This document shows, piece after piece, positions 40,619-64,000 of a stretch of DNA of 64,000 bases. The position numbers were made by a program, and so were the translations under genes. A model generated the notes under the pieces. The model saw only the letters and a program-made list of their open reading frames with translations, made no database searches and was not told the DNA's origin. Each line of letters begins with the position of its first letter. The first letter of the stretch is position 1. Origin of the DNA: a virus; IMG/VR virus record IMGVR_UViG_3300021399_000004, positions 1 to 64,000 of that record; one strand, 5' to 3'.

Positions 40619-43261
40619 TTATGATGGTAGTTCATTTACTGCTCCAACAAGTTTATCAATAAAATCTAGGAAACCAGCAGCAAAGGTTATATTAATAGAT
40701 ACTTCACTGCTGGCTTTTCTCCCAATGAAATTCCAATCAGATGGCGTCGCAAAGGTTTGTACTCCATCATTTCCCGCCCAACTTCTTGGAGTATGATTTT
40801 CAATGGTAGCTTGAATTCTTTGATCAGTAGGAATACCTTCAGTTTTGTGAATCATCTGATCTATATATTCTTTAGTCTAAAAAATTAAATATGACTATGG
40901 GACTAATACACCATTTAATTCATATAGATGTAAAAATTTTGGATCTCCAGCTTCTTCTACCTTAGATAATATTCTTTTAACCTCTGCCCCGCTGTCATTG
41001 AATAGTAGGACACTAGCTATCGCGGAAAAAATATTTTCCAAGTGCGACCGTTCTTTCTCAGCAACCAATCCAGGAGCCGCATTGCAAACCATGGTTGTTA
41101 ATATTTTTACATCAGGTAATGTTATTCCTCCAGCTTTTGCCATGAATGCGATATTTTCTAATTGTCGATTAATAGTACTGCCGAGTGTTCCGCCATGAAA
41201 ACCCATATCTTTAGAAAAATATGCATGATAATTTTTAACTGTTTCACTGATTTGAATATAATTCTTTAAGGTACTTATAGCTTTTTGATCGTCTTTGATT
41301 GAAATAATAGCTTTTTGATCTTCCTTATAAAAATAAATATTAGAAAAAGTTAATGACCCTAGATTCCATGCTTTGTCTATTTCACGCTCTACGACGGTTT
41401 GAAGGCGGTCTAATGCTCCCTCTGTTTGTTTTAGATCTGCCTCTGCGAGCATTGAATTTACTCTAACACCAGCCTCATCTCGAATGGCTCTAGCTTGTTT
41501 GAGTATTGTCCGAGAGCTTCTACGCAATTTTGGGTCTTTTTGATTAGCTTTGCTAGCAGTCATAGTCTAAATTCTAATAATTTCTGGCAAAGAATGGCTC
41601 ATTGCTTTTTCTAATTCTTCAGCTGCCTTATTTGGTGTTCCAATAAATTCTCCAATCACTATATCGGATTTTGTAGAAGTACCACTAGATAAACCAGTTA
41701 AATTATCAATACAACATTTTTTTAAGTCTCTCTAAGGTAGCATTTCAATTAAGCTAGAAGCAGCAGATGATTCAGCAATAGCAGATGGGCGAAAATGAAA
41801 TTTGGCTTGATGTTGCGTGGATACTAAAATATCTTTAATATGTTGAATAATTTTTTCTCCATCTAATCGCCTGTTGGCTGTTTTACTGTCTGAGAAAATC
41901 GTAGTAATAATATCTAATACTTTACTACGTGCATTTTTTTCTGCATCTTGGATAATTTTGTCTAGCTTTTCTTTTTGTTTTTCGCTTAAATTTTGATAAT
42001 TATTTTTAATCCACTATTCACAAGCTAAAAAAACTTCTGAAGCTATTCGTGTTAATCCTCGGATAGTTGTTCTGGCCTCTGTATTCCCTACGCTAAGGTT
42101 TTGAGGCAGGTCTTCAATTTTATATAGCTACATTAATCGTTCAACTTCACGATCATTTTCGTCAGCTTGCAGCTAATAAAAACGGGTTAATTGTCTATTA
42201 AAATTAGATGTTTCAGACGTCGCAAATACATCTCTAGTTAATTCTACATCCGTTGCATGATTATTTGTCTCTACTCGTGCATCTATTGTATGCCGCAAAG
42301 CACTAATAAACTGTTCTATTATCTAATTAACCTCTGATTCATCTAACGCGGCATTAGAAGATAAATATGGATTTTTAGCATAAGCGAAGATTGCTGAACG
42401 ATTAATTCTCATAAAATTTTCTAATAAAAAGGGTAACATCGTCATGTCAATATCTATATCTTTTGGCCGGCCTTTTAATAAAAGTTCTTTAATTGTATTA
42501 TTAAAACTTCTATCAGTCATAATTTTATCATAGCATAACTGCAATGCTTTTGCACAATGAGCAGCTAACGTTTCTGTTGCTTCTTGTATTGCTTGTAAAT
42601 CTTTTTTTTCTTTGTCAGACGTTGTTTTTCTTAGTAACTTAGATTCAATAAAGCCTTCCCAAGCCTAGTCTTGTTTATCATTATTCATTTCTCTCATGTT
42701 CTTGCTGCGACTACGCTATAAGGTAGCCCTATTATGGTGTTCAGCCCATTTATTGGCATAGATAGATATGCTACGTTGACTTAAGTTCTCAAATTCCTCT
42801 CTCTATTTTTGTATAATACGTAAGCGTTTTTGCTCTACGTCTAATAAAAATTTTAAATCATTAGTACTCTATGAATTGAGCTAATTAATCAATGCTATAA
42901 AAGGAAAAAAATTTTTGTTATGATATGCTTCATCAAGCGCTGATTCTAATTTAGTTTTAGTTTGACTGCCAAAATTATTATTATTTGAAATTTGTGTTGA
43001 AAAAAATAAATTTTCACTGTTAAGTGATCGCTTATACATGCGATTTAAAAAATTAAGAATTTCTTGATATACAGCGGTTAAATCTTTCCTTCTGCCCTTG
43101 TCACTAGTATGATAAGCAAGTCCAGCTTTTGCTTCTGTCCATAAATCCTAACCATATGTTTGTAATGAAGAAAAATATAAATATCTTTTACCTGGCTGAA
43201 ACTGAGATAACGGATAGCCAACACCATAGTATTCATTGCCAGGATGTCCTTCTATTGCCAT
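40619..43261 (-). CDS. large hypothetical protein (~880 aa, about 14 in-frame TAG)
   Basis: Track fragments 40619..40855, 40895..41563 and 42323..42544 share one frame. The hand-checked junctions contain only TAG. ATG at 43261 follows a terminator. Confidence 0.55.
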
Positions 43262-43278
43262 CCCCTCACCCCCTAAAA

Positions 43279-43316
43279 TAAAAAAATACGCCCCTCAGGG
43301 CAAAACCTGAGGGGCC
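43279..43316 (-). terminator. intrinsic terminator
   Basis: GCCCCUCAGG-6 nt-CCUGAGGGGC followed by GUAUUUUUUUAUUUU. Confidence 0.8.
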
Positions 43317-43693: not shown

Positions 43694-44932
43694 TTAACTA
43701 TGATATTTCATCAAATATTCGGGTGAGACGCATTTAAATGATTTTACGCCATCGAGAGAACGGCATACGATGCCTTCCTTTAATTCTCCATTAATAACCG
43801 AAGGCTGGCTATTTACATACTCTCGAAGTTCTTCTACTGAATCAGGTAGAATATATGCTTCATTAAGAATTGGCACACATGGAACATTATATTTTTCTTC
43901 AAGAAGTTTCTTCATCTCACAACTGTTCCAGCGCCCTTTATCGGAAGTAATAAGGTTAAAAGCCATAAAATCATGACCTTTTAGCCCATAAGTATTGCGC
44001 TGGACTCCTTCTCCATAAGTTTCTCCCTGGATTGTAACCCATTTTGCAGAAGGAGTTTCTTTAAGGAACTGAGATAATACTTCAAACATATGGTATTTTT
44101 CAGCCATTTCTAAATAAATATTAGAGTCATAATAGCATTGTTTTTTATTTTCATTACCAAAACATACATTACGAGAGCAGACATAAAATTCTTTCTTATT
44201 AAATCTGCCACGTCTCATCGTGAAAGTAGTTGATGAACCATCACACTTCTCTGTTACAATCCAAGGACTTTTATCTTTGAGTGTCCAAATTTGGTTTTCA
44301 ATTCTTTCTTCGTCAGTCTTTTTTACCCACGCAGGCCAATTATTCTTCTTATCGCCTTTTCTCCCGAAAAGTAAAAACATTATCTTGCGGCCGCACTTAT
44401 ATTTCATAAGCCAACGCACAATTGGCTTCTTGAAAATCTTAGGATGCCGTTGCGCCATTTTCTTGTATTTATCTATAGATGGCGCTTTGCGCTGATTATC
44501 CTCTTCATCTGCATAAGTTACACCAAGCTGCTTAGTCAGGAAACGAGATTCGTTTTCTACATTATGGCTATGTCCTTCATTATCTATGATATAAGGAGTA
44601 TTATATCCTTCAATATTGAGCGCGGGCGCAACATGCCATCCAAAATCTTCTGCGCTCATTAGTAAGCCTTGCGACACAACTTTGCACATTTTAAGGGTCT
44701 TAATTTTATAATTGCGCTTTTCAAGGAAAGCAAAGCACTCTTTATTTGAAGGCACCTTAGAGTCAATCTCAAAGTAAATACCAGGGTCGCCTGGTTTAAA
44801 TTGATCCTTCTTAACTATAACGGCCCAACCGCCAACATGCGCCAATTCTACTCGATCATATCCTGTAATAGAGCTGATCGTATCAACAGTAACTATATAA
44901 CAAAGCTCTCTTTCGCCCGCGGAATTAAGCAT
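43694..44932 (-). CDS. ATP-dependent RNA ligase (DRB0094-like family)
   Basis: 412 aa with no TAG. Nucleotidyltransferase motif I VTEKCDGSS. The N-terminal domain GYDRVELAHVGGWAVIVKKDQFKPGD is typical of this RNA ligase family. Confidence 0.7.
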   Translation of the reverse strand: MLNSAGERELCYIVTVDTISSITGYDRVELAHVGGWAVIVKKDQFKPGDPGIYFEIDSKVPSNKECFAFLEKRNYKIKTLKMCKVVSQGLLMSAEDFGWHVAPALNIEGYNTPYIIDNEGHSHNVENESRFLTKQLGVTYADEEDNQRKAPSIDKYKKMAQRHPKIFKKPIVRWLMKYKCGRKIMFLLFGRKGDKKNNWPAWVKKTDEERIENQIWTLKDKSPWIVTEKCDGSSTTFTMRRGRFNKKEFYVCSRNVCFGNENKKQCYYDSNIYLEMAEKYHMFEVLSQFLKETPSAKWVTIQGETYGEGVQRNTYGLKGHDFMAFNLITSDKGRWNSCEMKKLLEEKYNVPCVPILNEAYILPDSVEELREYVNSQPSVINGELKEGIVCRSLDGVKSFKCVSPEYLMKYHS

Positions 44933-45164
44933 TTTTGTTTAACCTCCAATGAAAGAACTCATCATGACTACCAATGTCATAATGAATTTCTCCGTCACTT
45001 TCCCATGTACGAATGTAATGGGATTTAAAGTTTTTACCATCTCTACGCTTCTTATTACACTCATCTACAAACTTATTAATTTCTCTATATACCTGCTCTT
45101 GATTATCGCAATTTGCGATAACCTTACGCTCACCATAATGATTTTCAAAATAAAGCTCGCCCAT
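44925..45164 (-). CDS. hypothetical protein
   Basis: 79-aa track ORF. Confidence 0.45.
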   Translation of the reverse strand: MGELYFENHYGERKVIANCDNQEQVYREINKFVDECNKKRRDGKNFKSHYIRTWESDGEIHYDIGSHDEFFHWRLNKNA

Positions 45165-51753: not shown

Positions 51754-51768
51754 TATTTTTAAAATAAA

Positions 51769-51853
51769 CAGCCCGCTTGGGAGTCGAACCCAATCTGTCG
51801 CTTCAGAGGCTGTGGTTTTAGAGACCACCCGTGCAGCCGCACACCTACGGGCT
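51769..51853 (-). tRNA. suppressor tRNA, anticodon CUA (reads UAG), class-II architecture
   Basis: Acceptor AGCCCGU/GCGGGCU, anticodon stem GUGGU/ACCAC with loop CUCUAAA, an 18-nt variable region containing a UCUG/CAGA stem, T arm UUGGG-UUCGACU-CCCAA, discriminator G. D region is GCGGCUGCACGG. Confidence 0.8.
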
Positions 51854-51886
51854 ATATAAGTGAGGTTTCCCTCACTTTCTATAATA

Positions 51887-52456: not shown

Positions 52457-53066
52457 GAAAGAGGATACTCTACTTAACAATTATAGTGACCTTCGTCATA
52501 CTTGCAGCATTCTTCAATTATATTCAACCACTACAGAATTAAAGGCTGAGCCATGAGTAGCGACCTCATAACTTCTTTAATCCGCTTTCGCCTAGTGTAG
52601 GAGGGGTTGTTTACCCTCAAGTTTCAGCCAAACCATTCAGCAAATACGATAAAAAAGCTTACCCCGCTTTTGTTTATCATGCTAAATTTCTGTCTTGGCC
52701 TACTCCAACTTTAAACCTTTCTTATATGCCATTTCTGGCTTTCATCGACAGTAACCGCTTGTTGGTCTTTCCTGAGTTTGTACTGGCTACCACCCCAATA
52801 CCTTATCAGGATTCGGCATTATCTATTCAATACTGCTGTCTATTATGCGGCCGAAAGGAATAATGTTTTTAATTGCGAATACTCAAGCGCCTATCCTTAA
52901 TCTTTGGAGTTTCTCCTTTATCGCTAATCATTGCTGATTTCGCGGCTAGATAATAAAAGTATCCTTCTATCATTGCTAGCGATTGTCCGGATAGCCCAAG
53001 CTACGTGGTTAGCGTATCTGCACTTGGTTCTAAAATTGCTAAGTAGAATATCCTCCCTCTCAGTAT
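52457..53066 (-). ncRNA. large structured RNA 1 (~610 nt; ROOL-like candidate by size and context only)
   Basis: Starts just downstream of consensus promoter 53073-53101 and ends at tRNA-Thr. No ORF on the transcribed strand. Visibly GC-richer. The ends pair over 19 bp (53037-53055 with 52472-52490), and the two differences between the arms are both G-U compatible. Confidence 0.55.
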
Positions 53067-53186: not shown

Positions 53187-53386
53187 ATATTCACTTACTT
53201 TCGTTGTCTTTTTATTATAGTGTGCTGCTAAATGACTAAGCCACATATCTTTTAACTCCACTAAAGCACATTTGGTTTAGCATTTCCTTACTTGGTCTAC
53301 AGTTAAAAGCCGGTGGTAGTTTAGTGAGAATCCATCCTTACCGCACACTAGGCCTATTTTATTACACGCAGAGCGCCCATGCGTAC
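53187..53386 (-). ncRNA. structured RNA between the split tRNA and tRNA-Ala (unknown)
   Basis: Nested long-range helices UAGUGUGC/GCACACUA (53343-53350 with 53218-53225) and CUUUUAACU/AGUUAAAAG (53301-53309 with 53249-53257). No ORF. Confidence 0.4.
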
Positions 53387-53530
53387 TGGCGCTCCCCATA
53401 GGATTTGAACCTATAACCCTGCGGTTAGGGCAGAGGCGAGAATTGAACTCGCAACGTGGGCGTCCCTCACACGATTACCAAATCGTCTCTCTGCTACAGC
53501 CGCATGCTCTACCGATTGAGCTAGAGGAGC
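53387..53530 (-). tRNA. class-I tRNA (Asn GUU if joined at canonical positions) with a 68-nt insert in the anticodon loop; CCA encoded
   Basis: Perfect acceptor GCUCCUC/GGGGAGC, D arm GCUC-AAUCGGUA-GAGC, T arm AUAGG-UUCAAAU-CCUAU and anticodon stem UGCGG/CCGCA. The stem strands are 75 nt apart instead of 7. Confidence 0.6.
53428..53495 (-). ncRNA. tRNA-shaped insert within the anticodon loop of the 53387-53530 tRNA
   Basis: Acceptor-like AGCAGAG/CUCUGCC, D-like hairpin ACGAU-UUGGUA-AUCGU, short hairpin GUGAGGGACGCCCAC, canonical T arm GCGAG-UUCAAUU-CUCGC, then one discriminator-like C. Confidence 0.5.
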
Positions 53531-53602: not shown

Positions 53603-55315
53603 TTAATAGTAGAAATAATATTGTTCTGGCAAATTTTTATTGTCATTTAATTCTCGTACAAAGCGTTTAATATTTGGTCTTGGAATGTATTGCGATAACT
53701 TTTTAATTCGTCTACTAAAGAATATTGATTGCTAATTTTCATTCTCTCGGCTATTTTCATCTGCATATTTCTTATAGCTTTGTAGATAAAATCGTCTTAT
53801 ATCTTTCCAATATTGCTCTAAAAATTCAGGATGGTTTTTAACACAACGAAGAAAGTAATTATACAAATCAATTAAGAAAATATTCATTTTTTCTATTATA
53901 ATACTAGTGTCTACTTTTGCTTTTTCGCATAAGTTAATACAGTAAATACCATTATCTACAATGCCTGGCAAAGCTGTATATAAAAAATTTTTATTATCCT
54001 TATATGTTAATGAATTTTTATTTACTACAGTTTTATATATTGGCAAATCATAATGCCGAATATGATATGTCTATTCTACTCTATTGTAGTCATCAATAAT
54101 AGCATAGCAAGTCAAATTTATACCACAGTCTTCTGCCGCAAAAGAACCAACACCTTGATTATATGGTAAAATATTATAAACTTCTAAGAACTCTCTACGA
54201 TATACTTTACCGGGTGTAGATGGTTCATATGCACTTTGTACTATATTATCTGCGCCGTTAATCCAACTCCATTCATAAATGTCCATAACTCTATTATTGT
54301 CTAATTCATCTTTTACAGCTAGTAAACAATATTTAGATAAAATAATATCGCCGCAATCTACAAAAGTTAAATATGTACCGTGTGTATTTTGCATGCCGAT
54401 GCGTCTGGCATTGCCGGGCCCCTAATTCTTTTCTAATTTAATCAACTATATTAATGGAAACTATTTAATTATATTAGTATAATCAACTGATGAAGCGTCA
54501 TCAATTACTACAATATGTAACCACTCATATTCTGGATAATAAACAGATTTTAAAGTACGTATTAATCCTTTTTCATCATTATAACTAGGTATAATAATAT
54601 CTAAATCTATCTTATCCGATTGATTATATATTATTTTATTATTAGGGATAGACATATATTTATTAAAAATAGGATATTTCTACCATTCATGGTTCCCTGC
54701 AAAATGATTTATTTTTCTACTTTTTGCTTTCTAAAAATCAGTAGAATCATTCATATTATAGTCAGGTGGTAAATTTAAAATATAACCTTGACATAATTTA
54801 TTTAAAGCATTTTGCTCTGGAAAAATTTCATAATGATTATTAATATAATTAATTAGTTCATCATCTTTTTTATCATCTCGTAATTTTTTTAGATTCATTA
54901 ACATAACGCCGCAGTTAATATCTAAAAACATTTCAGTACAATTAGAAGGCTAAGACGAAGCGGCAATGTAATAATCACTAATATCTATATCCCATAATTC
55001 TGAAATATTTTCATTTACAATTGTATCAACATCTAATGACAAAACTTTATCTAAGTCCGGGAATATTTTTCCTAAAGCAACTCGTATTAAGGCCATATAA
55101 GTAAATTCACTTTTAAAATTAGGCCCATGCTTATCAAAATAAGTCTAATTACTTACATTTAATGTTTTTGTTTTTGGCGGTAATTCATATGGAAATACGT
55201 CATCTTCAATTAGAAAATAAATCTATTCAACATTTGAATGAATAAGTAATGATTTTGCTGCACCAATCATATATTTGTAAAGGTTTCTGGTGCCTGTATA
55301 TACCGCTGTCCTCAT
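53603..55315 (-). CDS. fused family-8 / family-2 glycosyltransferase (about 10 in-frame TAG)
   Basis: Four track fragments (53732..54046, 54071..54394, 54461..54655, 54731..54931) plus the N-terminus share one frame, and every junction is TAG. GT8 motifs LSLDVDTIV and NCGVMLMNLKKLR. GT2 motifs IIIPSYNDE, VVIDDASS and GPGNARRIG. If the TAG at 53732 terminates, the end is 53732. Confidence 0.55.
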
Positions 55316-56010
55316 AATATTTCCTCCCATTTCAAATTGATATAATATCGTACAATGGGTTCTACAAAGAAATAATCACGAATACCAGCATAATGATAAA
55401 TTTTTCTTTTATTAGGATTATAATTCATAAATAATGGATGAGAATTATATTCTGTTGGTAATTCTAGAATATGATTCTTATATACCTTATTAAGAGTATC
55501 CTATTCGGCGTACTCTTCTCTATAATGATTTAATCTAAAAATCATTTTTTCATCCATTTTATCTTCACGAATTTTTTTTAAATTACATAATAATACTCCG
55601 CCGTTTACATATAATCCATTTTTATTAAATTCTGGTGTATCTCTTACGCCAGCAATATAATAATTTGATATATCAATATCCCAAAGTTCATCTATATTTT
55701 CAGTAACAATTGTATCAATATCTAAAGATAGAATCTTATCTAACTCTGGGAATATTTTAGAATAGACAGAGCGGATAAGAACCATATAGCCACCCCATCC
55801 ATCATACCAATTCATGCAAGTTTCTTTCTTAAACCATTGCTAATTACTGATATTAATACACTATACTTTATCTGGTAGTTCATAAGGGAAAATATCATCT
55901 TCAATTAATAAAAATATCTAATCAATATGAGAGTTCATTAGTAATGATTTTATAGCAGGTATCATTTTATAATACACATTTCGTGTTCCACTATATGCCG
56001 CTACTTTCAT
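55312..56010 (-). CDS. family-8 glycosyltransferase (4 in-frame TAG)
   Basis: ATG at 56010 to TGA at 55312. Contains LSLDIDTIV (DxD) and NGGVLLCNLKKIRE. Confidence 0.6.
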
Positions 56011-56044
56011 ATTACACTTCCTTAAATAAAATTAAAGTTTATAA

Positions 56045-56117
56045 TACCCGATGTGAGATTTGAACTCAACATTTCAGGCTTGAAAGGCCTGCGTGCTTAC
56101 CTTTACACAAATCGGGC
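56045..56117 (-). tRNA. tRNA-Glu(UUC)
   Basis: Anticodon stem CAGGC/GCCUG with loop CUUUCAA, acceptor GCCCGAU/AUCGGGU. The T arm has one bulged U. Confidence 0.8.
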
Positions 56118-56950
56118 ATATAGCGGTTTGATAACTCAGCCGCAACTGAGTAGGCTACACTGTGTGACGGATGCGGCTCGGCCTCTACGGATACCGTCGT
56201 AACGTTATCCTACCGCTTTACCAGTTTACCCCTTGTACTTTGGGCTGGCGAGGACATTCAAGCCTGATGTTTCCTCCCATTCCGTTTTTCACCTATAGAG
56301 TATCTGGCTACTCTATAAGAAGTCGCTACGCTTCTTGCCCCAATCACTCACTGACTGGCGTCATAGCCTTTTTAATGTCTAGACCATGTAACGACAACTA
56401 GCGATGAGAACCATTTATTCTCATTTTCTGGAACACTAGGTACTTTATTTTACTCCTCTTTTGTATAGCGCCGAGTAAGTTCGGTATAAGTACGCAACCC
56501 TTCACTTTGCGCTTTCTTGGCTGTTCTTCAAACTCCATTTAACCCATTCTTCTCATATGCTGAAATTAATCATATTAGCTACTTATGATCCGACTCAAAT
56601 CCTTCTTCAGCATAACAGCATTTGGGCACCATTACTCTGCCTGCCTACCAGAGTCGCAGCAGTTTGGCCCTGCTTGCCGACACCGCATATTTATATACCG
56701 CGAACGATGTGCGGTTTGGCATGTACCATTTAACTATTTATTAATCGCTCTGAAATACGTACCAAAGGAGCGATGGCTTTTCCCTATCCCTTAAGGCACG
56801 GCCGCGCTTTTAAATAATGCCGCCCTATATCTCTTCAGGTCTGGTCTTTGCCAATCCCCACTTCCCATTTCCGAAGTGTAGCGCACCATGTTAGTTTGGC
56901 TCAACACGGATAGCCGCAGCGTAGATTAATGTCCCTACTGTCTTGGACAA
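56118..56950 (-). ncRNA. large structured RNA 2 (~830 nt; GOLLD-like candidate by size and context only)
   Basis: Fills the whole interval between tRNA-Asp and tRNA-Glu in one promoter-driven unit (promoter 57096-57124). No ORF on the transcribed strand. GC-richer, with many hairpins, for example the 9-bp UAUAGAGUA/UACUCUAUA at 56294-56317. Confidence 0.55.
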
Positions 56951-57026
56951 TGGCGACTTCGGCGGGAATTGAACCCGCGATTTCCAGTGTGACAGACTGG
57001 CGCGATAACCACTACGCTACGAAGTC
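56951..57026 (-). tRNA. tRNA-Asp(GUC), CCA encoded
   Basis: Acceptor GACUUCG/CGAAGUC, anticodon stem CCAGU/ACUGG with loop CUGUCAC, T arm GCGGG-UUCAAUU-CCCGC, then GCCA. Confidence 0.9.
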
Positions 57027-57095
57027 ATAAAGGCGGTTTAAACTATTTTTAGTCTCATTACCGCCAAGTTTAAGGACTCTCAACCTTACATATAT

Positions 57096-57124
57096 ATTAT
57101 ACTAAATTTTTTAATTAATGTCAA
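57096..57124 (-). promoter_or_regulatory. promoter TTGACA-N17-TATAAT driving tRNA-Asp, large RNA 2 and tRNA-Glu
   Basis: attata at 57096-57101, tgtcaa at 57119-57124. The leader contains a GGCGGU...ACCGCC hairpin. Confidence 0.7.
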
Positions 57125-57277
57125 TTAATCATCATAACACTCGGTTTCAATACCAAGTTCCTCACAGAAGTCAGATTCAATTTCATACCAAGTCTCATGC
57201 ATGGCATAGTCATACGCATAATTAGTGTATTCTTCAGAATGGGCCTCACATACGAAATCATCCAGATAGTTAATCAT
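57125..57277 (-). CDS. small acidic hypothetical protein
   Basis: 50-aa ORF with a GAAGGAGG SD behind consensus promoter 57304-57332. Confidence 0.35.
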   Translation of the reverse strand: MINYLDDFVCEAHSEEYTNYAYDYAMHETWYEIESDFCEELGIETECYDD

Positions 57278-57303
57278 ACTACCTTACCTCCTTCTGTATC
57301 TAT

Positions 57304-57332
57304 ATTATACTTAAATTTTTAATAAAAGTCAA
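57304..57332 (-). promoter_or_regulatory. promoter TTGACT-N17-TATAAT
   Basis: attata at 57304-57309, agtcaa at 57327-57332. Confidence 0.7.
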
Positions 57333-57434
57333 GAAAAAATCATCTAAATTTTTACTCTTTGAACTTTCTCTTTAAAAATAGGTTGTGAGGCTATCGTTAA
57401 ATTCAAGTAAAAATTTCAAAATTTAGATGAAATT

Positions 57435-57463
57435 GTTACCTTTATTCGCGTAATAAAGGTAAC
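57435..57463 (-). terminator. terminator-like 12-bp hairpin ending the RNA downstream of tRNA-Met
   Basis: GUUACCUUUAUU-5 nt-AAUAAAGGUAAC followed by AAUUUCAUCUAAAUUUU. Confidence 0.5.
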
Positions 57464-57783
57464 GGCTAAGAATTTAACATAGTCTTAGCAAACTACGTGT
57501 TTATATCGAAAACAAACCGAGCAGTTATCGTACTGGGTTCTCAACGGCCACGAGTTCGTCGGGTTGGTTCCACCCCGCCGACATACATTTACGAAGATGC
57601 AGGATTACGGCATGATGTTGCTCCGGAACAAACTTATATGGTCATGCGCTCATAGCTACTTATATAAGGAAAAGTAGCCTAAACCGCTATCTTTTCTCCG
57701 CGGTAAGTTAAGATAGCAAAACTTTCCGTAACGACTGTTGCGCACTTAAGTTTCTCCATTATAGATGGAGGCTTCTCGCGCAG
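57464..57783 (-). ncRNA. ~320-nt structured RNA downstream of initiator-like tRNA-Met (unknown)
   Basis: No ORF and GC-richer. Bounded by the tRNA at its 5' side and a 12-bp terminator hairpin at its 3' side. Internal helices include GUCGG...CCGAC. Confidence 0.4.
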
Positions 57784-57855
57784 TTGCGGGAAGAAGAATC
57801 GAACTTCTATCTCCGGGATATGAACCCAGTCATTTTACCTTTACACTATCCCGCG
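57784..57855 (-). tRNA. initiator-like tRNA-Met(CAU)
   Basis: 5' CGCGGGA with a C1xA72 mismatch, anticodon stem ending in GGG/CCC, loop UUCAUAU, 3' end CCCGCAA as in bacterial tRNA-fMet. The D stem is weak. Confidence 0.7.
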
Positions 57856-57897
57856 ATATTGGGTTGATTACGGCTCAACCCATAAGCCGCAATCACC

Positions 57898-58245
57898 TTA
57901 TAGTAGATTTAGTAACTTCGGAAAATCAAAAATATCGAAAAGACTAGGGACTTCCTTAATATCATTGGTAGAAAAATGATAGGTCTTATACTTGGAAATA
58001 AAATCTTCCAATTCCTTCCGATACGCATTTTGTGCTTCAACCATTGCCTTGCGCGCGGCATCAACACGCTCTGCGGCGGCCTTGCGCTCGGAAGCGGCCT
58101 TTTCCTTCTCTGCCTTGACGCGGGCCTCTTCTCTTTCCTTCAATACCTTTTGACGATTAGCCTCTTCCTGTGCCTTAAATTCGGCTTCGAGACATTCCTT
58201 TTCAGTATTGTATACCTTATTAAGTTTTTCGCTGTAGTATTTCAT
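57898..58245 (-). CDS. hypothetical coiled-coil protein
   Basis: 115-aa track ORF, Lys/Glu/Ala-rich. It is the first gene of the minus-strand block behind promoter 58323-58351. Confidence 0.5.
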   Translation of the reverse strand: MKYYSEKLNKVYNTEKECLEAEFKAQEEANRQKVLKEREEARVKAEKEKAASERKAAAERVDAARKAMVEAQNAYRKELEDFISKYKTYHFSTNDIKEVPSLFDIFDFPKLLNLL

Positions 58246-58322
58246 ATTAATCTACTCCTTCGCAGTTCCTTACCTGCTTTCTTTATTTCAAGGGAGGTTC
58301 CTTACCCTCTCTTGATAAATAT

Positions 58323-61500: not shown

Positions 61501-64000
61501 AGCAGGATTAACAGATCGTAATATTTTACAAAATTTCTATGCTGATGCTTTAACTCCTGAAGAAATGATAAAGCGTTATGATCGCAATCAAATTTATGAT
61601 GCTAATGGTAATCTTGACCCAGAAGTACTTGCTGAAGCTTGCCCAGATTTAAAAGTGCTTCTAATATCAGCACCATATTTTACTAATGATAAATCTAATT
61701 ATGTTAAAAATACTACAATTCGTTGTATTCACACTGGAGGTCGTTTAAGAGATAACTGGACTATCCGCAATGCTTATCACGTAGGACAAGGAACTAGTTC
61801 TAACCGCTATGGAGCAGCCGGCCGTAATATTGATTTAATTTTCGGTTTTGATGGGATTAATTCTCCAGTTAGCAAAATTAAGACGGCTGATGTATAGGAT
61901 TATGTATCTACCGTCGAGTTTATTGATGGCACAACTCTAACTGGAGCTAATGCAAAAATTAATTTAAGTGAAACTTCAGTAGAAAATAACTGGTTTAATG
62001 TCAAAGTAAATATAGCTTCTTCTGAGAATGCTAATAATGCTTTACTGCAAAAGCGTTATAATAGATATTTACCATACTAGACTCCGGCTTAGAAGCGCGA
62101 TCCTCGTATTAAAAATACAATGGAATTTTTCAACTGCGTTATCTTTGTGTAGGAGACAGATACAACTTAGGACGCCAATGGAGTGTATACAGCGCACCGT
62201 GAGTTCCCAAATGATACTAATTATCATTTCTATGGTATTGGTAATATCGGTGACTCTAAAAAGACTGATAATACTCGTGTTAATGATCCGACAGATTTAA
62301 AAGAATTTGTGGTTGAGATCTCTGACAACAACTTACCTAATGCAATGTTCCAGACTGGTGTTTATTGGACGGATGATAAGCATACTGCTACAACTTATAC
62401 TCCACCTATAACTAATGAAATGTAGATGATGAAGTATCCTATTACAACCGCTGAGTGGGAGAATGAAAATAACTTAGCTAGAAAGAGCCTAAGTTTAGAA
62501 GGATACGTTAGTGGCACCAAAGAAGATGATGATGGTAATATCGTGGATGTTATTACTAATTGGGATTCTTCATTCGAGTTTAGATATGATATGGGCACTA
62601 AAGATGGTGAAAGCATAGATAGCGCGACTATTAAGGCACAACAAAAGGAATCTAAATTAAAGTGGAATGAGATGTATAAATGGTTTATTACTTGCCCAGA
62701 TGAAAATTTCGCTAATGAGCTAAGTAACTGGTTTATTGTTGATTCTCCATTATACTGGTATGTATTTACTGAACGTTATACTATGATTGATAACCGCGCG
62801 AAAAACTCATTCTGGCATTATGGTAAAACTTATATTACAGAAGCAGAAGCTGAAGAAATGGGCGATGATGCGGTTAATTACACTATTGATAATGCGGCCG
62901 CCGCGATCAATGATGGCTATCGTTTCGATTTATGGGACTATGATAATGATACCGCTTTGGGCATTGATAATTCTGGTATTTTAAATATTACATATGGTAA
63001 AGAAGATATTGATCTAATTGAAGGCTCTGAAGCGACACTATTTAATGCTGGACGGAGTGTCTTCTGGCGTCGTATTCGCAACCTAATGAATACTCAATTA
63101 ACTAATATGTATTCATCTCGTATTGTTCCGGAGGCTTGGAGTGCCGCATCATTAATACAAGAATTTGATACTTGGCAAGAGCAGTTCCCAGAAGAACTGT
63201 GGCGTTTAGATATTGAAAGAAAATACTTACGTCCATACTTAACTGGCAGTTATGTACCGGCCACAAAAACATATGCCATTAATGATTCATTCTTGCGAGA
63301 TATGGCTAACGGTCGCAAACGTTATCAACGCCGTCAATTTGAGCGCGATATGGAAATTTATTTAGGAACCAAATATTTACAAGCAGCCGTATTAGAAGAT
63401 ACTATTGACATTCGTTTAGGTTAGGCTAGTACTAGCTCCGCGGCAGTTGTGCCACCAAATTATACTATTAAGATTACTCCATATTCTGATATGTATATTA
63501 GAGTAATGTTTGGTAACAGCACTCCAACATCTATTCGTGCGAAAGCTGGAATCATGTATACTATTCCTTCACAAGTTAATATTAATGATCCTAACACTTT
63601 ATAGATTGTTATTTATGGTGCTTCTCGTATTCAGGCATTAAATGATTTGTCTGCTTGTTATATTAGAGATAATAACTTCTCTAAAGCAGAAAAATTACGT
63701 ACTCTAGTAATTGGTAATCCAACTGAGGGATATTCTAATACTAATCTTACTGATCTTACTTTAGGTAAAAATAGATTACTTGAAACATTAGATATTCGTA
63801 ATTGCCCGAATTTAACAACTAGCTTAAATTTAAATAACTGCGTCAATCTATTAAAATTATACGCGCAAAACACTTCTATATTAGGTGTCGCTTTTGCTCC
63901 TAGTGGTAGACTTATCGAAGCTCATTTACCTGGCACTTTAAATACATTATCATTACGTAATTTATACAGTTTAACGACTTTAGATGTAGCAAATTATGAT
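58514..64000 (+). CDS. giant tail-fibre/host-recognition protein, 3'-partial (at least 1828 codons, 18 in-frame TAG in the window)
   Basis: AAGGAGG SD before the ATG at 58514. All eight plus-strand track ORFs from 58514 to 63424 share one frame, and every junction I read is TAG, never TAA or TGA. It has a fibre-like Ser/Ala/Asn-rich coiled N-terminus, a segment [14 protein letters not shown], and leucine-rich repeats at the window end. Confidence 0.7.

Follow-up and report, generated by a model that had tools for sequence, protein, structure and literature searches.

The spacer between two tRNA genes of a phage tRNA island, on the minus strand of IMG/VR virus record IMGVR_UViG_3300021399_000004 (positions 1 to 64,000, hereafter the window), encodes what we interpret, with a probability of about 0.6, as a trans-acting large structured RNA of an undescribed family, confined as sampled to the tRNA islands of TAG-recoding large lytic rumen-type phages. 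The family comprises 58 loci on phage and metagenome contigs, all of rumen type and composed of collinear blocks; its members always lie on the tRNA strand, inside a tRNA array. In the window the interval covers 56119-56950, that is, 832 nt between the third and fourth of the following elements:

57096-57124, minus strand: sigma-70-type promoter, TTGACA-17-TATAAT, matching 12 of 12 consensus positions and serving the tRNA-Asp/large RNA/tRNA-Glu unit
57032-57065, minus strand: leader hairpin GGCGG...CCGCC in the gap between promoter and tRNA-Asp, read from the sequence
56951-57026, minus strand: tRNA-Asp(GUC) with encoded CCA (ARAGORN; Rfam tRNA model, 71.8 bits)
56044-56118, minus strand: tRNA-Glu(UUC) (ARAGORN and Rfam)

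A first-pass annotation, made from the letters alone, had proposed that this promoter drives an ~830-nt, GC-rich, hairpin-filled RNA without open reading frames (ORFs). These points were borne out. No terminator-like sites were found from the promoter through to the GT8 glycosyltransferase gene that follows tRNA-Glu, and the preceding transcription unit is closed by a strong terminator at 57463-57435. The longest stop-free run on the transcribed strand of the interval is 46 codons (64 with TAG read as sense), every frame has stops under any single stop reassignment, and the two plus-strand ORFs, 56171-56401 and 56585-56794, are antisense to the RNA. The GC content is 42-49%, compared to 22-30% in adjoining coding DNA. 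The named hairpins were located as well, a 9-bp stem at 56294-56317, CACUUC/GAAGUG at 56859-56878 and ACUCAG/CUGAGU at 56123-56151. The gap between tRNA-Glu and the next ATG, that of the GT8 gene, had been given as 35 nt and measures 33 nt. In the sister strains L064 and L065 (related loci are denoted by L numbers), which are 98% identical upstream, similarity ends exactly at 57124, the edge of the promoter, and a TAG-recoded PAPS-reductase-like gene (L064:1868-2064, L065:495-1183) replaces everything downstream. Thus, the tRNA-Asp/RNA unit sits at a mosaic, or recombination, junction.

The interval had been put forward as a GOLLD-like candidate. To compare it with known families, the 4227 models of Rfam 15 were run at gathering thresholds, and a 2-kb region (55900-57900) was scanned at E<=10 with lax filters. 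At gathering thresholds 56119-56950 gave no match, whereas the same scans recover ROOL (RF03087) at 328 bits at 52468-53051; this model finds nothing in 56119-56950 even at E<=10. The sensitive scan of 55900-57900 revealed no GOLLD, ROOL, OLE, HEARO, intron, RNase P, tmRNA or ribozyme, and a whole-island scan at E<=0.5 likewise gave no match in the target interval. Neither Rfam 15 nor, for tmRNA, ARAGORN matched it to OLE, HEARO, raiA, group I or II introns, RNase P, tmRNA, or HDV-like or other self-cleaving ribozymes. The GOLLD model (RF01998) is silent at E<=10 in 55900-57900, at E<=1 in L075:3000-4395 and at its gathering score in 17 homologous loci. Thus, the GOLLD identity was not upheld, while the broader description, a large non-coding structured phage RNA beside tRNAs in the niche typical of GOLLD and ROOL, fits the context; with no Rfam 15 model matching, the annotation's fallback of a new large phage RNA applies to this interval. 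It does not extend to the separate 610-nt RNA that had been named along with it, as that RNA is the ROOL copy at 52468-53051. No description of the family was found in the literature that could be searched, in which a 2023 IMG/VR survey covers motifs of 29-151 nt only. We therefore regard the family as very probably undescribed.

Relatives of the interval were recovered through its neighbors and then through its own conserved blocks. A blastn search of the 832 nt in distant mode against 50,697 GenBank phages gave no match, a first search for related loci with the adjacent GT8 protein found no relatives, and exact-protein look-ups returned only near-identical strains or strains without the island. 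The window's own contig is ENA ERZ28612961 scaffold_147 (129 kb; SAMN02144230), from a sheep-rumen project; an exact 20-mer of the RNA had no match in the IMG/VR collection searched, which accordingly lacks this contig. Homologs of the downstream GT8 gene did lead to contigs that carry a 45-nt piece of the interval directly after tRNA-Glu(CUC). Used as a pattern, this piece identified two IMG/VR contigs whose tRNA-Asp to tRNA-Glu interval aligns blockwise with the window. An invariant block of the alignment (M4, below) as query identified 17 viral and 38 metagenome contigs and gave no match in 185,579 GTDB bacterial and archaeal genomes, and an independent word from the 3' domain added 2 further contigs. 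All 8 contigs fished by the 3'-domain word carry M4 with at most one mismatch. By regular expression, M4 is followed by the 3' junction in 46 of 56 loci at a spacing of 32-612 nt (median 205), the rest being mostly truncated contigs, and by covariance model the two occur together in ~49 loci. As a negative control served 57 loci related through a tail-fibre-like protein (62426-63424), none of which has tRNAs, ROOL or the new RNA. No protein family consistently neighbors the members; only a 115-aa Lys/Glu-rich protein, glycosyltransferases and tail-fibre genes turned up.

The blocks are arranged in a fixed order on the tRNA strand in all loci: M3 comes first, followed by the palindromic-loop hairpin and M4, and after a variable linker come a three-arm junction and a 3' pseudoknot. 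M3 comprises a 5' element and two hairpins. In the window these elements are, from 5' to 3':

56119-56716, minus strand: core of the new large RNA family (M3 through M4 and junction to the 3' pseudoknot), a compact 598-nt version, collinear in 58 loci and without Rfam match
56681-56716, minus strand: M3 5' element, a proposed H-type pseudoknot (ACCGC/GCGGU and CAUCGU/GCGGUG), from the alignment
56634-56654, minus strand: M3 hairpin ACUCUG/CAGAGU, which is AGCUUG/CAAGCU in L084, L108 and L114, three pairs being fully compensated
56557-56613, minus strand: long hairpin before M4 with inner stem AUCAUA/UAUGAU and 9-nt loop AGUAGCUAA, from minimum free energy folds and alignment
56576-56581, minus strand: palindromic loop UAGCUA inside the 9-nt loop, a candidate symmetric kissing-loop site
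56519-56551, minus strand: M4, the 33-mer AAGAAUGGGUUAAAUGGAGUUUGAAGAACAGCC, the near-invariant family signature, essentially identical in 40 distinct sequences with divergent flanks
56450-56478, minus strand: post-M4 hairpin UUACUC/GAGUAA, alternating with UUGCUC/GAGCAA, with compensation in 5 of 19 sequences and no break at that pair
56294-56431, minus strand: variable linker with local hairpins, including the 9-bp stem at 56294-56317, its content differing among members
56154-56296, minus strand: 3' junction domain, beginning GGUGAAAAACGG, with closing helix ACGGA/UCCGU and arms Hb GAGGA/UCCUC, Hc CCAG/CUGG and Hd GCGG/CCGC
56123-56151, minus strand: 3' H-type pseudoknot ACUCAG-UUGCGG-CUGAGU-UAUCAAA-CCGC, ending 4 nt before tRNA-Glu

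The window M4 agrees with the family 33-mer at 33 of 33 positions. From M3 to the pseudoknot the members measure ~520 to ~880 nt, and more where an upstream ~190-nt block, M0, is present. The M3 5' element likely folds as an H-type pseudoknot, judging from the changes in its second stem, in which G.U becomes A-U in L082 and L084 and the whole helix reads CAUCUA/UAGAUG in L107. Of the earlier ~830-nt unit, then, the 832-nt non-coding interval itself stands; its whole length is not a conserved unit, as the core is 56119-56716 and the first ~230 nt are accessory.

Folding of the single window sequence is weakly better than that of shuffled sequences (z = -1.7), and evidence for structure therefore had to come from homologs. 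We aligned 23 distinct junction domains by sequence only with MAFFT. RNAalifold predicts from these a closing helix and two arms, with double substitutions in 11 of 12 predicted pairs. Counted over 17 pairs, 89.4% of the cells are paired, compared to 28-47% in slid-partner controls, and 13 pairs show compensatory change, compared to 2-5 in the same controls. The covariation score is 0.41 against <=0.12 in controls, and the observed values were reached by 0 of 500 shuffles. Extending the analysis to 46 distinct junction sequences gave 92.3% paired cells (34-50% in controls), compensation in 13 of 14 pairs and a closing helix that is 99.5% paired. The Hd arm appears as GCGG/CCGC, GCAG/CUGC, GCGA/UCGC and ACGG/CCGU. 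In the 3' pseudoknot, stem 1 varies as CUCAG/CUGAG, CCCAG/CUGGG and CCGAG/CUCGG around an invariant UUAUCAA linker; stem 2, which has one sequence in most members, occurs as GCGG/CCGC, GGCG/CGCC, GGGAG/CUCCC, AACGAU/AUCGUU and UGUU/AACA, and complementarity is preserved in all of these versions.

A covariance model of the 3' junction domain, R1, scores 53-101 bits in ~49 family loci, while its best score in 1.01 Mb of related-phage control DNA is 19.8 bits. At least 15 loci that were not in the seed score 53-99 bits. In the window, whose sequence is part of the seed, the model reaches 99.1 bits at 56154-56296, a match that starts ~220 nt past the M4 33-mer. The homolog search and covariation analysis that the first-pass annotation had called for yielded both relatives and compensatory substitutions, the latter maintaining the junction and the 3' pseudoknot, and we consider it close to certain that this is a genuine conserved structured RNA family.

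The analysis was less kind to a long-range closing helix that had been suggested between UGCGGCU (56912-56918) and AGCCGCA (56172-56178). Both sequences exist, and their pairing has no comparative support: the 3' strand is used locally, where GCGG at 56213-56216 pairs with CCGC at 56173-56176 and covaries, and UGCGGCU lies in a stretch not common to the closest relatives, L072 and L073. As AGCCGCA belongs to the local covarying Hd helix, the long-range helix is not supported. Two further pairings were also rejected. The M3 loop GUAGGC was considered as a partner of GCCUAC in the 3' block, and the variants, judged by eye, do not covary; M4 was considered as a complement of the tRNA-Glu T-arm, and on inspection M4 is invariant while the T-arm differs between relatives.

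The hairpin upstream of M4 provides a hint of an intermolecular contact. Its stem is UCGUA/UACGA or CCGU/ACGG in other members, and its loop sequence varies while self-complementarity is kept. In 36 of 41 distinct members a perfect palindrome of 6 nt or more has its centre 12-30 nt upstream of M4; in 1000 shuffles this held for 11.1 members on average and for no more than 20, and in an adjacent control window for 1 of 41. This position-specific test supersedes a position-free count of any palindrome (36 of 40 against a null of 27). Seven different cores occur, UAGCUA, GAGCUC, AAGCUU, UUGCAA, GCUAGC, UGUACA and GGUACC. A second copy of the palindrome in the same RNA is found in 4 of 36 members, which is below chance, and the consistent partner would thus be the same loop of another molecule. 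Kretsch et al. took palindrome-switching loops (OLE L9.3 and GOLLD L21a, with palindromes including GGCC, GAUC and AGCU) as support for the symmetric kissing bridges between molecules that cryo-EM shows (PMC12286853). By this parallel the new RNA may self-associate, although we place the odds that it oligomerizes a little below even.

Could the conservation reside at the level of DNA or protein rather than RNA, either as a peptide gene from M4 or as a palindromic protein-binding or recombination site? M4 does overlap the start of a 46-codon ORF (56398-56538), which its AUGGAG would open, and palindromes are typical of sites for dimeric DNA-binding proteins. However, the distance from M4 to the next block changes by non-multiples of three, so that the frame is not preserved between members and no peptide is conserved from M4; we rejected a conserved peptide gene on this ground. 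The invariance of M4 moreover spans all codon positions. The helices are compensatory and G.U pairs are found on the transcribed strand only, while the palindrome keeps its self-complementarity and not its sequence. An explanation at the DNA or protein level is hence barely credible.

Upstream of the core, the first ~230 nt of the window interval hold two accessory modules:

56840-56887, minus strand: M1 (GGUGCGCUACACUUCGGAAAUGGGAAGUGGGGAU..GACCAGA), with hairpin CACUUC/GAAGUG at 56859-56878; 91-95% identical copies in 20+ loci
56722-56774, minus strand: M2, hairpin AUCGCUC/GAGCGAU and an AU-rich tail; 98% identical in L072 and L073 directly after tRNA-Asp

The M1 stem shows a compensated change in L081 (CACUUU/AAAGUG). 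The placement of M1 varies, as it can precede M3 or, in about ten other phages, lie in the gap between M4 and the 3' junction. M2 occurs elsewhere as a trailer that starts 0-2 nt past tRNA-Asp, tRNA-Arg or tRNA-Glu(CUC), with copies at L072:776-829, at L066:12931-12975 after tRNA-Glu(CUC) and, after tRNA-Arg, in L078, L079, L088 and L122. M2 may be a tRNA-trailer processing element. It was also considered as an HDV-like/theta or other self-cleaving ribozyme; no Rfam model matches it, and by inspection it cannot be threaded onto the HDV-like helix order. The linker of other members is variable in content and can hold M1, a DUF3800-I RNA (RF02969; inserted inside the linker at L075:3864-3969 and L080:4560-4665), a tandem duplicate of the junction, seen as secondary R1 matches, or up to five tRNAs.

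How the RNA would be made is suggested by the geometry of its ends. In short-form members the pseudoknot block stops 2-5 nt before a tRNA, mostly Glu(UUC) and also Thr, Asn, Val, Pro or Glu-CUC, and in L086, L095, L117 and L105 the start of M3 coincides with the 3' end of a tRNA or of a tRNA-like element. As the ends abut such elements within 0-5 nt, tRNA-processing enzymes would define the termini. The RNA would be co-transcribed with the tRNAs from the 57124 promoter and then excised, with the RNase P cut at the 5' end of tRNA-Glu creating the 3' end of the large RNA and 3' processing of tRNA-Asp creating the upstream end of the interval transcript. With M1 and M2 as extra sequence on the 5' side in the window, the mature species would be either ~830 nt or ~600 nt. 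The terminal pseudoknots could shield it from exonucleases, a stability that we read from their geometry. Homodimers or higher oligomers could then form through the symmetric palindromic kissing loop, as in OLE, GOLLD and ROOL, and the invariant 33-mer M4 could be a functional surface for binding a partner or for a tertiary or quaternary contact. Judging from the context, the role most likely concerns the phage tRNA/translation programme, as is suspected for GOLLD and ROOL.

The same flanks could be read in cis, with the element being a 5' leader that regulates the downstream glycosyltransferase genes or a scaffold that only helps the neighboring tRNAs to mature. In most cases tRNA-Glu(UUC) adjoins the RNA directly, and no terminator separates this tRNA from the GT8 gene 33 nt downstream. 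Yet what follows the RNA in most loci is more tRNAs, not glycosyltransferase genes, GT8 homologs occur in L066-L071 without the RNA, and the downstream tRNA can be Thr, Asn, Val or Pro instead of Glu. Also, an invariant 33-nt core, a covarying junction and a palindromic loop go far beyond what a spacer needs. A cis-acting element is accordingly improbable, and we retain the interpretation of a trans-acting RNA.

A more serious question is whether the core is one molecule at all. The interval could instead be a string of independent small RNA modules or tRNA-processing spacers that are co-transcribed and then released or degraded separately. Several observations favor this alternative and weigh against a single large RNA. 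Modules are shuffled between members: M1 occupies two positions, M2 follows several different tRNAs, the free-standing Rfam motif DUF3800-I is inserted in L075 and L080, and the junction is tandemly duplicated in many loci; the window copy itself lacks M0 (~190 nt) and the duplicated junction found in many members. In L102 (oriented 1131-1619) tRNAs Thr, Gln, Ile, Cys and Arg lie between M4 and the 3' junction and, if processed, would cut the RNA in two, so that the core is only probably one molecule. A covarying long-range pair between the 5' and 3' halves was looked for and not found, the 5' half being too conserved to show covariation; RNAalifold on the nearly invariant M4 region likewise gave none. 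On the other side, M3, M4, junction and pseudoknot depart from their order and strand in none of the loci. Fishing from either end recovered M4 together with the junction, and both are absent from the related tRNA arrays L066-L071. The linker of GOLLD also holds tRNAs, yet GOLLD is one assembly (PMC12286853). Taken together, we regard separate modules as a minority explanation, although the least unlikely of those considered, and the RNA from M3 to the pseudoknot as probably one functional molecule.

Further points tell against the proposed large RNA more generally. The single-sequence fold is only weakly better than shuffles, as noted. All members come from one ecological source and probably represent one phage lineage, in which case some of the covariation counts would reflect few events. 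Excision by tRNA-processing enzymes and the putative stability are read from geometry, and the palindrome might conceivably act at the DNA level.

The genome that carries the unit is that of a large lytic phage of an anaerobe. It encodes Pol III alpha, gyrase, DnaB, NrdD and DNA ligase, and its tRNA island has 16 tRNAs, all on the same strand (ARAGORN). TAG is recoded: about half of the large ORFs contain in-frame TAG codons (as many as 14 in 40619-43294), none of these ORFs ends with TAG, and the replication genes lack such codons. The island includes a suppressor tRNA whose anticodon is CUA (51768-51854, minus strand; 'Pyl' according to ARAGORN). Immediately before the island is an RNA ligase gene (43694-44938, minus strand; PF09414 and a PHA02142 OB-fold), the position of which suggests tRNA repair against host anticodon nucleases. 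Following tRNA-Glu are two tandem glycosyltransferase genes (53603-56031, minus strand), one a GT8 and the other a GT8+GT2 fusion, which contain 4 and 10 in-frame TAGs, respectively; read with the standard code they resemble a string of pseudogene fragments.

Other non-coding elements are found in the same region. The full-length ROOL (52468-53051, minus strand, 328 bits) is located in the same tRNA island, between tRNA-Ala and tRNA-Thr, behind a promoter-like TTGACT-17-TATAAT at 53101-53073. Near ROOL in L072 and L073, drum RNA (RF02958; L072:4198-4291, L073:6116-6209) lies beside a block that is 100% identical to window 53309-53350, and there is no drum match in the window. A group I intron match (RF00028; 49702-50011, minus strand) scores 50.0 bits, exactly the gathering score, in the sensitive scan only, in an ORF-poor region beside tRNA-Leu(CAA). 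The ~320 nt at 57464-57783 (minus strand), between tRNA-Met (57783-57855) and the terminator at 57463-57435, have 43-44% GC, are ORF-poor, show no Rfam match and could encode a further non-coding RNA. Cow-rumen-4 RNA (RF02948) is matched below threshold at 58261-58316 (minus strand; 38.5 vs 48.5 bits), with a promoter-like site just upstream (58351-58323), and a weak tRNA-like match (53436-53523, minus strand; 25.3 bits, cut-off 29) lies in a GC-rich stretch upstream of tRNA-Ala.

To our knowledge, bacterial and phage non-coding RNAs of more than 500 nt with complex conserved folds are very rare, being essentially OLE, GOLLD, ROOL, HEARO and raiA. RNA-only homo-oligomers were recently found for three such RNAs, which makes each new class a prime target. 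Since an unrelated RNA occupies the GOLLD/ROOL niche, even in ROOL-bearing genomes, the niche arguably selects giant RNAs repeatedly, and three unrelated solutions in one niche become comparable for what they share. A bolder version of our reading, which we offer as speculation and consider unlikely as a whole, is that GOLLD and ROOL are joined here by a third class of giant phage RNA, independent of both and self-assembling, which would be cut from tRNA-array transcripts, form symmetric kissing-loop oligomers and act with the phage tRNAs and ROOL. If so, it might provide a scaffold or compartment in which phage tRNAs, the TAG suppressor among them, are held or kept safe from host defences that target tRNAs, or it might contact the ribosome via the 33-mer. 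The 33-nt core, the palindromic loop predicted to mediate self-association, the ends presumably set by tRNA processing and a compact ~600-nt version suited to cryo-EM offer experimental handles, and the family's occurrence in phages that recode TAG and encode suppressor tRNAs and an RNA ligase may offer a way towards the function of such RNAs.

Among known systems, the proposed maturation most resembles tRNA punctuation, in which RNase P and RNase Z free transcripts flanked by tRNAs, as in mitochondrial transcripts and MALAT1-mascRNA. The ends of the conserved RNA are likewise within 0-5 nt of tRNA or tRNA-like elements and would be processed in this manner; in the window, unlike in these examples, accessory modules of 230 nt separate tRNA-Asp from M3. 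DUF3800-I and drum are, similarly, small and highly conserved candidate RNAs of the same phage tRNA islands, described as about 100-nt motifs and then terminators (Weinberg et al. 2017, PMC5737381); in the Rfam scans neither is in the target interval of the window. OLE shares with the new RNA a loop palindrome, in L9.3, that switches among self-complementary sequences (GGCC, GAUC, AGCU in OLE; PMC12286853). By contrast, OLE is a chromosomal RNA of extremophilic and anaerobic Bacillota that has protein partners and no tRNA context, and the two have no sequence relation.

GOLLD forms a 14-mer nanocage, and its expression rises during lysis. Its likeness to the new RNA is considerable: both are several hundred to >800 nt long and lie in phage or prophage tRNA islands, both show conservation in the 3' region and less of it in the 5' region, with tRNAs sometimes in the linker (here in L102), and both have a hairpin loop that switches palindromes, which in GOLLD is an intermolecular kissing bridge (PMC12286853). 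These shared traits, including a size range of 0.5-1.5 kb, would also fit a very divergent GOLLD, a true homolog beyond the reach of the Rfam model. We consider such homology very improbable, since RF01998 is silent in all of the searches above while ROOL is found at 328 bits, and since the GOLLD 3' region is described as universally conserved, so that some signal would be expected. The new RNA, instead, has its own motifs (the M4 33-mer, the GGUGAAAAACGG junction and the UUAUCAA pseudoknot), and it has so far been found only on rumen-type phage contigs and not in Lactobacillales, Mycobacterium or aquatic samples.

ROOL is closest in setting, as it shares the rumen origin, a length of about 580 nt, a multi-junction and pseudoknotted fold and proximity to phage tRNAs, and it co-occurs with the new RNA in the same genomes (the window, L072 and L073). 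It forms RNA-only oligomers through kissing loops (PMC12286853). It is, however, a separate gene of unrelated sequence with its own promoter, 3 kb away, and while the ROOL architecture is fairly fixed, the new family is modular and spans a ~three-fold range of lengths.

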